Assembly: GCA_002726235.1 (NCBI GenBank)
Contig: PBSN01000008.1
Span: 66,088-130,087, forward strand
Direction: 5' to 3'
Length of the DNA stretch: 64,000 nucleotides
DNA from: Nitrospiraceae bacterium
GTDB taxonomy: Bacteria; Nitrospirota; Nitrospiria; Nitrospirales; UBA2166
The position numbers are program-made. Shown one piece after another: positions 54,201 through 57,200 of this stretch (its first letter is position 1; every line of letters starts with the position of its first letter).

Positions 54201-57200
54201 TTCCCCGAGGGATTTTCTGAGGATAGCCTGTTGCTTCGGCGTGGAGGAAAGGCGATGGACGGGACATTTATGAATTTCGCTGGGGCTCGTGGGGCCGTAT
54301 CCGGAAAACTGATTCGCCCGTGTGCTACGAATGATGAATGACCAATATGACAAAATAATTACCGCAAAAGTGCGAGAAGAATTTAAGATTTGTCTTTGGG
54401 AAGATCGGACTCGTGGGGAATTGTGGGTATCGACCTATGATTCTGATCAGCTTGCGCTTATTGATGATGCTTTTCAGCGGAAGACGGGTGGGACTATCAA
54501 TGATTCAGGAATGCGGATATTTCGGTTTCAGGCTGATCATCCAGGGAAATATGGACTGGTATTTGAGAAGAGGTTGGGCTGGAGATTTACATCCATCAAG
54601 CGGCGGGACTACATTGTCTCCGTCGAACCGTAGAATCAAACGGCATGTCTGACATTGCCTACCTAAATGGTGAATTCACAAAACTTGCTGAAGCCTTTGT
54701 TTCGGTTGAGGATCGAGGGTTCCAGTTTGGTGATGGGGTCTATGAAGTCATCCGAGTGTATGACGCGACACCACACTTATTGCGAGAACATATCAATCGA
54801 CTCAAGCTCAGCGCGGCATCAATACATTTGGATGATCGTCTGTCGTATGACGAGTGGGAAAGCATCGTTCGGGAAGGTATCGATCGAAGCGGATACACTG
54901 CAGCCAAGGTCTATATTCAGTTAACGCGCGGTGTGTCGCCGCGTGATCATCGTTTTCCTGTCACGGCACCTCTCACTAGGGTTATGACGGTACGCGAAAT
55001 CGAGCCTGATGATCTACAGTTGCGGGAAACCGGGGTTCCTGCGATCACCGTCAAGGATATTCGATGGAATCGCTGTGATATTAAATCGCTGAACTTGCTT
55101 CCGAACATCCTTGCGAAGCAGCAGGCGACACAAGTTGGGGCGTTCGAGGCTTTGTTCGTCAAGGGCGAGTTGGTGTTTGAGGGCTCAAGTAGCACTGTGA
55201 TGGTGGTATCCGATGGTGTTGTACATACGCCACCGGAAGGGCCTCGCATCTTGTCCGGAATTACACGTGACTGGGTGCTGAACGTAGCCCGCGCGAGCGA
55301 AATCACAGTTGTTGAAGAACCCGTATCAGTGGAGACGATGCTTAGTGCCAAAGAGGTTCTGCTTACCGGGACGATTATTGAGATTATGCCTGTGGTTAAA
55401 GTAGACGAATATCAAATTGGCGATGGGAGACCAGGGAAAATATATCATCGCTTATATCAGAAGTTCCTCGCTTCGATTTCCTAATTGCTCCAAACGTCCA
55501 GGTTGAATCGCTATAGGTGGTCTTTTCCGTTGTTTGTGGCATCTGCTCTGACACTGTGCTCAGGATGACAGTGCCTCTGTTTTTGCAGTGCTGTTGAGTC
55601 AGTTAGTGCAGTGTGGTTTTGTCACTGATCTACTCTACAAGTGGCACCATACTTGGTGTCGCATTTTCCCTTCACCAATTTGAACCAGCGGAGGGTTCGT
55701 CGTTTTACAGTGGTCCATTACTTGGGGACAGCGGGTGTGGAAACGGCATCCCGTTGGAGGATTGAGTGGGGATGGTACGTCCCCTTGGAGAGGAATACGC
55801 TTTGTCTGTATTGTTGGGTCGGGGATGGGATTTGCTGAGATCAAGGCTTGGGTATAGGGGTGTTTGGGTTCGCGAAACAGTGCATCAACAGAAGCCACTT
55901 CTGCGAGTTTTCCGAGGTACATGACCGCAACTCGATTCGCAATGTGTTGCACCACATGAAGATCGTGGGAGATGAATAGGTAAGACAGGTTGTGTTCTTC
56001 CTTAAGATCTTGAAGCAGGTTCAAGATCTGGGCTTGGATTGACACATCCAGAGCTGATACGGCTTCATCGCATACAATAAACTTAGGTTTCAAGGCGAGG
56101 GCTCGCGCGATTCCGATCCGTTGTCGTTGTCCTCCTGAAAATTCATGAGGGTAGCGGGATTGATAGGTTGGAGAAAGACCAACGTTCTCGAGTAATGCGG
56201 CGACTTTTTGTGTTGTTGCCAGGCCATTGGTGAGTCCATGAATGTTCATGGCTTCGCCAATAATTGACCCGACGGTCATGCGAGGGTTCAGCGAGCTATA
56301 TGGGTCTTGAAAGATGACCTGCATGTGTGGGCGCGTGTGCCGAAGTTGTGCCGCATTCATCGCTGTGATGTTTTTGCCATCAAAGACGACAGTTCCGGAT
56401 GTTGGCTCCATGAGGCGAAGGAGGGTTCTCCCTGCGGTAGTCTTTCCACATCCTGATTCGCCAACCAGTCCGAGTGTCTCGCCCGCATAAATCTCAAATG
56501 ATATATCGTCAACAGCTTTGACCCATCCAGCAATTTTTGAAAACACGCCATGGCGAACGGGAAAGTGTTTTTTGAGATTGCGTACGTCGAGAAGTACGGT
56601 CTTGGATAATGGGGCTTGAGTTATCACGGCGTAGGTTTAGCTCAACGGTTCGATATCATCCGGCTTCTGACTTCTCGCACAGCCAGCAGGCTGTCTCATG
56701 CGCAGGCTCGGTTTGAATTAACGATGGGTTCTGATCCATACAGTGGTCGAGTCGATCTTTGCAACGAGGCGCAAAGTGGCAGCCTTGAGGGTAGAGCAAT
56801 GGGGAGGGAACCATGCCGTCAATTGATGCGAGACGGGTAGACGGGTGGTCTGGTCGAGGGAGTGCATTGAGTAGGGCTTTCGTATAAGGATGCTGAGGGT
56901 TCTTGAAGAGCGTCATCACGTCAGTTTGTTCTACGATTTTACTTGCGTACATGACCACCACGTTACGTGCAAATTGTGCAACGATGCCAAGATTATGCGT
57001 GATCAAGAGGATGGCCATTCCCATTTCAGACTGCAAGGTTCTTACTAGGTCGAGAATTTGAGCTTGGATGGTCACATCGAGGGCTGTGGTTGGCTCATCC
57101 GCGATAAGAAGGTCGGGGCTGCAGGCGAGGGCCATGGCGATCATGACTCGCTGCTTCATTCCACCTGAAAGCTCATGGGGATATTGGTCGATTCGTCTCT

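Follow-up and report, generated by a model that had tools for sequence, protein, structure and literature searches.

Genomes of UBA2166, a marine, non-nitrifying branch of the Nitrospirales, contain no recognisable gene for either alanine racemase (Alr) or glutamate racemase (MurI), while keeping a murein pathway that is predicted to be complete and of the D-amino-acid-dependent type, together with an apparently ordinary D-amino-acid transaminase (DAAT, g00699). From any one D-amino acid, this transaminase could make the other and so act as a distributor. Our preferred reading, which we hold tentatively and at a little less than even weight, is that the first D-centre comes from a side activity of a retained housekeeping enzyme, i.e., GlyA, DapF, L-threonine aldolase or DAAT, and that DAAT then passes it on.

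The DAAT gene lies within a 64,000-nucleotide stretch of DNA (the window) from one of five genus genomes, all of which are MAGs: the present genome (G000, 90.65% complete), G004 (98%), G008 (88%), G012 (96%) and G016 (73%). Comparisons were made with 56 other Nitrospirales and with 150 other Nitrospirota, two sets that overlap, and all absences given below rest on these MAGs and on profile searches. The features around DAAT are collected in Table 1. The pair that it forms with the upstream gene for a chagasin-family inhibitor is kept within the genus and recurs in many other Nitrospirales; to our knowledge, this inhibitor family has no functional link to D-amino acids.

Table 1. Position, strand and description of DAAT and the features adjoining it in the window.
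Feature	Position	Strand	Description
Chagasin-family (I42) peptidase inhibitor	54322..54633	+	103 aa, directly upstream of DAAT; PF09394 44.7 bits (cut-off 27.2)
D-amino-acid transaminase (DAAT, g00699), predicted canonical group-I (Bacillus) type	54645..55484	+	Single 279-aa ORF
Dpp/Opp-type peptide ABC importer	55635..61723	-	Convergent with DAAT; two ATPases, two permeases, 710-aa family-5 binding protein

Loss of alanine racemase and lack of glutamate racemase

The Ala_racemase_C profile (PF00842) has no match in any of the five UBA2166 genomes, whereas all 56 other Nitrospirales and 149 of the 150 other Nitrospirota have it. The first-pass annotation had proposed that this lineage, alone among the Nitrospirales, has lost Alr, and the wider set of genomes bears this out. 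Its companion statement, that Ala_racemase_N (PF01168) occurs only on the YggS homologue, holds as far as YggS is concerned (TIGR00044, 204.9 bits) and needs widening by weak matches to LysA and by one extra match, seen in G008 only, which proved to be a partial gene for a BhcC-like aldolase adjoining BhcD- and BhcB-like genes. No protein in the five genomes combines Ala_racemase_N with Ala_racemase_C.

Gene order points to a clean loss. A genome of family f4 (G003) has the gene order frr-alr-mlaE-mlaF-mlaD, and in G055 alr stands beside the same mla neighbours; in the present genome, by comparison, an unbroken contig of 105 kb carries the mla genes, with a TRAP transporter before them and no alr. 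A tblastn search of this genome with the Alr proteins of seven other Nitrospirales genomes gave a best E value of about 1, i.e., no remnant.

It is very improbable that alr and/or murI are present but escaped assembly or binning in each of the five genomes. Gaps or differences between these MAGs are real, in that a segment of about 12 kb bearing the L-threonine aldolase gene in the four other genus genomes is missing from the present one alone. However, alr was found in none of five genomes that range from 73 to 98% in completeness, and the product of their missing fractions is about 2e-6 if misses are independent. Both the continuity of the contig that carries the former alr neighbours and the lack of any tblastn remnant argue against an artefact, as does the success of the same search in 205 of 206 trials on other Nitrospirota (counted over the two overlapping genome sets).

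MurI was likewise said to be missing from all five genomes, and we agree: Asp_Glu_race (PF01177) has no match above its cut-off in the genus, and three sub-threshold matches (19.7, 16.2 and 11.4 bits) belong to PanB, a metal ABC binding protein and ThiE. The profile is present in only 3 of the 56 other Nitrospirales. Because the remaining 53 have no MurI while the order has Alr and DAAT, the suggestion that its members make D-Glu from D-Ala is a reasonable one, the likely route being conversion of L-Ala to D-Ala by Alr, followed by the DAAT reaction of D-Ala with 2-oxoglutarate to give D-Glu.

The transaminase and the murein pathway

The assignment of g00699 as a D-amino-acid transaminase is upheld by several kinds of comparison. 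Aminotran_4 (PF01063) spans its full length (152.2 bits against a cut-off of 28.5, profile positions 1-223 of 223), and its top NCBIfam models are D-amino-acid transaminases (NF005209, 284.4 bits, below its cut-off of 320; TIGR01121, 276.9 bits, just under its cut-off of 277.45), the BCAT and ADC-lyase models scoring far lower. The closest solved structures are D-alanine or D-amino-acid aminotransferases (9pxs, E 4e-59; 3daa, E 4e-58). Alignment to 3daa places the catalytic Lys147, the N1-binding Glu179 and the carboxylate trap Tyr33/Arg100/His102 at the positions of Bacillus K145, E177, Y31, R98 and H100, and all five residues are invariant in 14 of 14 DAAT proteins of the UBA2166 clade. By these marks, g00699 would be an ordinary, canonical Bacillus-type enzyme. 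Orthologues occur in 54 of the 56 other Nitrospirales (44-54% identity; one truncated) and in three of the four other UBA2166 genomes (73-85% identity), so that the gene is retained in four of five genomes of the genus. Two further class IV paralogues, IlvE and a PabC-like gene adjoining pabB, are both found across the Nitrospirales.

Three substitutions, His44, Asn142 and Thr184, are fixed in the DAAT of this clade, where a Nitrospira orthologue has Phe44, Gly142 and Asn184. All 14 clade proteins have Thr184, which none of the 106 nearest relatives has; among 150 diverse representatives, 3 have Thr and 15 have Ser at this position, and a single one (P0201) has His44 and Thr184 together. Because the Asn184Thr change lies beside the N1-binding Glu, it was considered as a marker of lost fidelity, and it was set aside as a natural variant without kinetic effect in another DAAT: the reverse swap in the Desulfomonile enzyme, T199N, is reported to have left transamination kinetics unchanged (PMC12429042).

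The claim of a complete murein pathway is likewise sustained, in that MurE (DAP type), MurF, MraY, MurD, FtsW, MurG, MurC, MurB and Ddl all score above their NCBIfam cut-offs, and Ddl and MurF are canonical. A route of the MurD2/MurL type, in which L-Glu is joined to the precursor by a ligase and then epimerised in place, is barely credible. The murD gene lies in the dcw cluster, flanked by mraY and ftsW, and its product scores 404.5 bits on TIGR01087; when aligned to E. coli MurD (segments NDHMDRY, with the Asp, and GGRDKATDF, with the Lys), it has Asp, Lys and Lys at E. coli positions 182, 348 and 319, which is the D-Glu type and not the Glu/Arg of MurD2 at the two chirality-switching positions (Glu197/Arg358 in MurD2 against Asp182/Lys348 in MurD). 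There is no extra Mur ligase or second MurD-like gene, the Mur-ligase family consisting of MurC, MurD, MurE, MurF and FolC only, and no unexplained gene adjoins murD. Moreover, such a route would leave D-Ala unsupplied. The gap in the first-pass annotation, which had not covered a MurL-type epimerase, is narrowed by these results on the MurD2 side, i.e., as to the residues of MurD and the number of ligases.

Possible sources of the first D-centre

Several published solutions to the lack of a racemase were looked for. DapF of the present genome matches the ordinary DapF model (TIGR00652, 253.2 bits against a cut-off of 114.65) and falls well short of the exception model NF038284 for the bifunctional enzyme of Chlamydia, which doubles as glutamate racemase (159.7 bits, cut-off 350). 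A transaminase/racemase of the TM0831 type does not fit g00699, which keeps the 91-102 loop (TRGVSPRDHRFP) and matches PDB 3csw only at E 2.3e-18. Across the five genus genomes, meso-DAP dehydrogenase (DAPDH_C) gave no match even at E <= 1, enolase-superfamily racemases or epimerases (MR_MLE_C) and the proline-racemase fold gave none above cut-off, and the Cys/Met PLP family, to which the moonlighters of the MetC/MalY type belong, has no true member (top score 37.6 bits). A MR_MLE_C match inside the window is IspG. The four class III aminotransferases of the present genome, considered as stereo-inverting or Ile-2-epimerase-like enzymes, are ArgD, BioA, HemL and an AstC-like protein; the gene for the last lies in an arginine succinyltransferase operon. 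Among fold-type II enzymes, the scan took in five of six (the sixth, C8:147224-148195, presumed to be TrpB, was left out), and these are three ThrC-like proteins, CysK and a CysM-like protein, none with a serine-racemase or IlvA-type best match. Within the families searched, there is no dedicated racemase, and most published work-arounds appear to be absent in their known forms, MurL lying outside the search. A search of the 544 family-specific gene clusters in Table S9 gave no entry named 'racemase', its epimerases being those of sugars or NAD(P)HX only (PMC12342949). The first-pass annotation concluded that an unrecognised or moonlighting racemase must be at work in this lineage, as in Chlamydia and Thermotoga. 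This is too strong: it comes with no candidate gene, and both of those solutions are absent here in their known forms.

Our favoured explanation is that a housekeeping enzyme which the lineage has kept creates the first D-centre by a slow side reaction, and this could suffice for slow-growing chemolithoautotrophs. GlyA and threonine aldolase have alanine racemase side activities, and our first choice would be racemisation of L-Ala by the serine hydroxymethyltransferase GlyA or the related L-threonine aldolase, which would leave the order's flow from D-Ala to D-Glu unchanged. Next would come DapF, which might racemise Glu, as in Chlamydia, or provide meso-DAP as a D-amino donor, and then imperfect stereochemical fidelity of DAAT itself; Y31Q and E177K mutants of the Bacillus enzyme are described as turning L-Ala into D-Ala (PMC12723384). 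GlyA (as a single copy) and DapF are each present in five of five genus genomes, and L-threonine aldolase in four of five (the present genome being the one without it) and in 53 of 56 other Nitrospirales. Since all four candidates, DAAT included, also occur in relatives that keep Alr, their presence is uninformative, and no sequence feature singles out any one of them.

Uptake or salvage, with D-Ala, D-Glu, another D-amino acid or peptides containing D-amino acids imported and DAAT balancing D-Ala against D-Glu, is an unlikely source, though one with some circumstantial appeal. The genomes are small (1.9-2.3 Mb) and come from marine sediment and vents (PMC12342949), where water rich in murein debris could serve as the source; the retention of both Ddl and DAAT would fit a supply of free D-amino acid. 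An NSS-family Na+ symporter, a LivK-type binding protein and a TRAP system are among the transporters that Table S9 lists as family-specific and as present in all four genomes (PMC12342949), and the ATPase of the Dpp/Opp importer adjoins DAAT in the loci of the genus only (4 of 4). However, the Dpp/Opp binding protein is common to 19 of 19 genomes of the Alr-bearing family f3, so this importer does not set the lineage without Alr apart, and a VanX-type D-Ala-D-Ala dipeptidase is encoded in only one of the five genus genomes; for these two reasons, we rejected the Dpp/Opp system as an importer of D,D-dipeptides. An alanine/glycine:cation symporter occurs in none of the five, no Mpl murein-peptide ligase is found among the Mur-ligase-family genes named above, the stereo-specificity of the remaining transporters is not readable from sequence, and obligate auxotrophy for the cell wall would be unusual in an rTCA autotroph. 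We think it similarly unlikely that Alr has been replaced by a dedicated racemase from a family not yet recognised, hidden among family-specific or unannotated genes. All searches made here rely on known profiles, many of the 544 family-specific gene clusters in Table S9 are unannotated (PMC12342949), and earlier holes of this kind have been filled by unprecedented enzymes such as MurL, as recounted in PMC8788868. But no candidate lies near the murein genes, DAAT, dapF or the former alr neighbourhood, and Table S9 contains no family-specific PLP enzyme common to all four of its genomes, with class I/II and class III aminotransferases and a GadA-like decarboxylase in two genomes each (PMC12342949).

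A stereo-inverting cycle that needs no racemase, or a close variant in which the clade's DAAT, bearing His44, Asn142 and Thr184, had relaxed stereo-fidelity and were itself the racemase, seems to us improbable. In this cycle, the keto product tetrahydrodipicolinate would be re-aminated from L-Glu by the DAP pathway, with a net conversion of L-Glu to D-Ala or D-Glu. That DapF makes the D-centre of meso-DAP, DAAT moves the D-amino group to pyruvate or 2-oxoglutarate and tetrahydrodipicolinate re-enters the DAP pathway is a decidedly doubtful proposal. It would require no new enzyme, all of its parts are encoded (lysA, dapF, dapA and dapB, clustered together in that order, and DAAT), and the substrate range of some DAATs is very broad, with 23 D-amino acids accepted by TM0831 (PMC9790342). 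Nevertheless, the literature search turned up no report of a DAAT using meso-DAP, relatives that keep Alr have the same parts, and DAAT bears no sequence sign of an altered donor pocket.

Comparison with known systems

Alr, MurI and Ddl are drug targets, and each racemase-less lineage described earlier has yielded new enzymology: moonlighting DapF and GlyA in Chlamydia, MurL in Xanthomonas and TM0831 in Thermotoga. In Chlamydia, D-Ala is supplied by GlyA. Its DapF is reported to double as a glutamate racemase (PMC5885031), and UBA2166 resembles it in having neither Alr nor MurI, in keeping a murein precursor pathway that uses D-Ala and D-Glu, and in having both GlyA and DapF. Unlike this intracellular parasite, which is not reported to use a DAAT, UBA2166 is a free-living autotroph that keeps one, and its DapF falls below the chlamydial bifunctional model.

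TM0831 of Thermotoga maritima is a class IV transaminase that is both a D-amino-acid transaminase and an Asp/Glu racemase, i.e., a single enzyme able to create a D-centre and pass it on (PMC9790342). The UBA2166 DAAT is likewise a class IV (Aminotran_4) enzyme in an organism with no MurI, but TM0831 is without the loop bearing Arg98 and His100 (PMC9790342), and Bacillus DAAT is by far the closer match to the UBA2166 protein (E 4e-58, against about 2e-18 for TM0831, PDB 3csw). In Xanthomonas, a similar hole in D-Glu supply is solved by MurD2 and MurL without a racemase for the free amino acid; as described in PMC8788868, that organism has no DAAT and keeps its own supply of D-Ala, whereas UBA2166 has a MurD with canonical D-Glu residues, no second ligase and a DAAT.

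Dat of Bacillus and Staphylococcus is of the same enzyme type and shares the catalytic residues and the carboxylate trap; it is described as interconverting D-Ala and D-Glu in either direction alongside Alr and MurI (PMC12723384). There, at least one racemase feeds Dat (PMC12723384), whereas none is recognisable in UBA2166. With both racemases gone and a standard DAAT kept, UBA2166 represents a new configuration, and genome-based models that call such organisms auxotrophs for D-Ala or D-Glu, or that take a racemase for granted, would err one way or the other. Its sister lineages, which still have Alr and the same DAAT, allow a clean comparison, and the list of candidate genes is short.

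Loss of recognised racemases from the genus

Every Mur enzyme and Ddl of G000 (GCA_002726235.1; 1.87 Mb in 27 contigs, 90.65% complete) scores above its NCBIfam cut-off, and ftsI, murE (DAP type), murF, mraY, murD, ftsW, murG, murC, murB, ddl, ftsA, ftsZ, yggS and proC lie just upstream of the window, which spans G000:C8:66088-130087, on the same contig. As encoded, this pathway requires D-Ala and D-Glu, and the lineage still depends on both in free form. Since the five Mur-ligase-family genes are all accounted for (MurC, D, E, F and one presumed to be FolC), our search of this family leaves neither Mpl nor a second MurD in G000.

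The first-pass annotation had reported this full murein pathway alongside neither Alr nor MurI, and profile searches, tblastn and NCBIfam scores bear it out. Six-frame searches found Ala_racemase_C (PF00842) in none of the five UBA2166 genomes (besides G000, the genomes G004, G008, G012 and G016 are 98, 88, 96 and 73% complete) and in 56/56 other Nitrospirales; of 150 other Nitrospirota, 149 have the domain too, and the one that lacks it is 87% complete and has congeners with the gene. Alr proteins from seven other Nitrospirales genomes returned nothing by tblastn against G000 (best E ~1). The gene order in G003, of family f4, is frr-alr-mlaE-mlaF-mlaD, and alr of G055 adjoins the same mla neighbours; no alr accompanies the mla genes of G000, where the 105-kb contig is uninterrupted. 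A DctPQM TRAP transporter takes the place held by frr-alr in G003, and Table S9 of PMC12342949 counts TRAP DctM and DctQ among the genes specific to UBA2166.

Ala_racemase_N occurs on YggS (TIGR00044, 204.9 bits), after ftsZ in the dcw cluster, and weakly on LysA. A further match, in G008 only, is no racemase but a truncated BhcC-like 3-hydroxy-D-aspartate aldolase; it belongs to a row of genes at a contig end that resemble those of the beta-hydroxyaspartate cycle, and all of these score under curated cut-offs. For Asp_Glu_race (PF01177), no genome of the genus exceeds the cut-off; the three sub-threshold matches are PanB, a metal ABC binding protein and ThiE, and these account for the 19.7-bit match noted previously, which is indeed sub-threshold. 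The racemase absences are real, as far as metagenome-assembled genomes allow, and we regard an artefact as very unlikely.

Because PF01177 occurs in only 3 of the 56 other Nitrospirales and orthologues of the transaminase g00699 (DAAT; 44-54% identity) in 54, one being truncated where its contig ends, the order as a rule combines Alr with DAAT and has no MurI, in keeping with the earlier suggestion that Nitrospirales make D-Glu from D-Ala. Two other Nitrospirales, G007 and G017 (99% complete), have a D-Glu hole of their own: Alr is present, with no DAAT orthologue (best class IV E 1e-37 to 1e-40) and no PF01177. The PabC-like class IV paralogue of G000 reaches 218 bits against the DAAT model and might double as a DAAT, a dual role reported for M. 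tuberculosis Rv0812 (PMC8105722).

Features discussed, with their locations
Feature	Location	Strand	Remarks
DAAT (g00699)	window 54645..55484	+	single ORF, 279 aa
Chagasin-family (I42) peptidase inhibitor	window 54322..54633	+	directly upstream of DAAT
Archaeal-type phenylalanyl-tRNA synthetase	window 45890..49176	-	pheT_arch TIGR00471, 464 bits; PheS PRK04172, 550 bits
Response-regulator receiver-LpxC fusion	window 42850..44112	+	420 aa; receiver N-terminal; LpxC TIGR00325, 243 bits, residues 149-419
DctPQM TRAP transporter	L175 (G000:C12:76837-83288)		directly upstream of mlaE-mlaE-mlaF-mlaD
Bhc-like genes	L009 (G008:C26:2972-5112)		BhcB-like dehydratase, BhcD-like iminosuccinate reductase, BhcC-like aldolase
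Putative sulfur-metabolism cluster	L171 (G000:C13:75300-79300)		ThrC-like gene, MoeB/ThiF-type adenylyltransferase, CysK
AST catabolic operon	L083 (G000:C3:11300-17900)		M20 hydrolase, AstC-like aminotransferase, AstA, AstD, AstB
~12-kb segment	L086 (G008:C64:23500-34500), L087 (G004:C1), L088, L089		L-threonine aldolase, 2-hydroxyacid dehydrogenase, HpnA-/HpnG-like genes, lexA, PhzF-family isomerase
VanX-type D-Ala-D-Ala dipeptidase	L090 (G016:C396:5157-5750)		PF01427, 153.5 bits

Retained enzymes and known alternatives

Searches of the five genomes found no enolase-superfamily epimerase, no proline-racemase fold, no meso-DAP dehydrogenase and no genuine representative of the Cys/Met PLP family PF01053 (MetC/MalY-like). 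The missing PF01053, together with the L171 cluster, suggests that Cys or homocysteine synthesis depends on a sulfur-carrier protein. G000 has four class III aminotransferases, namely ArgD, BioA, HemL and the AstC-like gene of an AST operon (itself a catabolic operon in a presumed autotroph). Of its six fold-type II enzymes, five were scanned and proved to be CysK, a CysM-like protein and three proteins resembling ThrC; the sixth is presumably TrpB. Besides DAAT, class IV is represented by IlvE and the PabC-like gene, which adjoins pabB. DapF, single-copy within argD-argF-argG-argH-lysA-dapF-dapA-dapB, reaches 159.7 bits on the NCBI model for the chlamydial bifunctional DapF, against a cut-off of 350.

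The enzymes left with known side activities are GlyA and DapF (each in 5/5 genomes of the genus), DAAT and a low-specificity L-threonine aldolase. The last (NF007825, 326.6 bits vs 312) occurs in G004, G008, G012 and G016 and is missing from G000, in which the ~12-kb segment that carries it in the other four is absent at both syntenic sites. Of the 56 other Nitrospirales, 53 carry this aldolase too, which makes it an ancestral gene and not one acquired in place of Alr.

Source of the first D-centre

The earlier reading is supported in part: the loss of racemases and the need for free D-Ala and D-Glu stand. Our tentative preference, at a little under an even chance, is that a side activity of a retained enzyme would supply the first D-centre, which would then be fed through DAAT; a DapF-DAAT shuttle acting on its own is quite improbable. 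An unrecognised dedicated racemase is unlikely as well. In a published comparison, UBA2166 is the family at the base of the order: marine (sediments, vents), without nitrite oxidoreductase, fixing CO2 by the rTCA cycle and having 544 family-specific gene clusters (PMC12342949). A search of that paper's Table S9, where these clusters are listed, gave no 'racemase', no epimerases except those acting on sugars or NAD(P)HX, and no PLP enzyme shared by all four genomes.

Uptake of D-amino acids we likewise consider doubtful. Marine sediment and vent habitats are rich in D-amino acids, genomes in the genus are small, and a Dpp/Opp importer lies convergent to DAAT in 4/4 genus loci; however, the 710-aa binding protein of this importer is common to 19/19 genomes of family f3 (61-66% identity), which keeps Alr. 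Table S9 (PMC12342949) lists as family-specific amino-acid transporters an NSS symporter, a LivK-type binding protein and a TRAP system, each in 4/4 genomes, but Mpl is absent from G000 and VanX is confined to G016, the genus member with the most fragmented assembly, where it may be accessory or contamination. No alanine/glycine symporter was found in the five genomes. The MurD2/MurL route is the least probable of all: MurD2 takes L-Glu via Glu197 and Arg358, which stand where E. coli MurD has Asp182 and Lys348, and Lys319 plays a part too (PMC8788868), whereas the sole MurD of G000 aligns with E. coli-type Asp, Lys and Lys at 182, 348 and 319.

The transaminase and its characterised relatives

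Annotation of g00699 as a D-amino-acid transaminase is upheld. Aminotran_4 covers it end to end (152.2 bits), and its top NCBIfam models, NF005209 (284.4 bits, cut-off 320) and TIGR01121 (276.9, cut-off 277.45), both describe this activity, with branched-chain transaminase and aminodeoxychorismate-lyase models far lower. The nearest solved structures, 9pxs (E 4e-59) and Bacillus 3daa (E 4e-58), are both D-alanine/D-amino-acid aminotransferases, and by alignment the protein retains the Bacillus active-site residues Tyr31 (here Tyr33), Arg50, Lys145 (DIKS), Glu177 and Leu201, as well as the 'carboxylate trap' Arg98 and His100 (Bacillus numbering; here TRGVSPRDHRFP). Structure matches, model ranking and active-site alignment together mark the predicted protein as a canonical group-I DAAT. 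It is 73-85% identical within the genus, occurring in G004, G008 and G012, and was not found in the 73%-complete G016. The genus conserves its pairing with the chagasin-family inhibitor, as do many other Nitrospirales (41-51% identity; loci L038-L065).

When 14 proteins of the UBA2166 clade are set against the 106 relatives nearest to them, three positions prove to be fixed differently in the clade: His44 (Phe, Tyr or Cys in relatives), Asn142 (Gly in 102/106) and Thr184 (Asn in 106/106). Asn142 adjoins the Trp equivalent to Bacillus Trp139, which contacts PLP at the subunit interface, according to the title of a cited work. At position 184, which follows the Glu binding pyridine N1 by five residues, 128 of 150 diverse representatives have Asn, 15 have Ser and 3 have Thr. 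According to work published in 2025 on the Desulfomonile enzyme, Asn here weakly hydrogen-bonds the N1-binding Glu and Thr cannot; T199N left transamination kinetics unchanged, and the authors call the two residues equivalent at position 199 (PMC12429042). The substitutions Y31Q and E177K, in coenzyme-anchoring residues, are described as making Bacillus DAAT convert more L-Ala to D-Ala (PMC12723384). From such comparisons, altered stereo-fidelity in the clade is faintly conceivable, and our best explanation does not rest on it.

The UBA2166 pathway hole merits bench work, given a short candidate list and Alr-bearing sisters with the same DAAT as controls. The Thermotoga maritima transaminase TM0831 (PDB 3csw), which also racemises, matches DAAT only at E 2e-18; TM0831 is without the 91-102 loop (PMC9790342), whereas DAAT has it.
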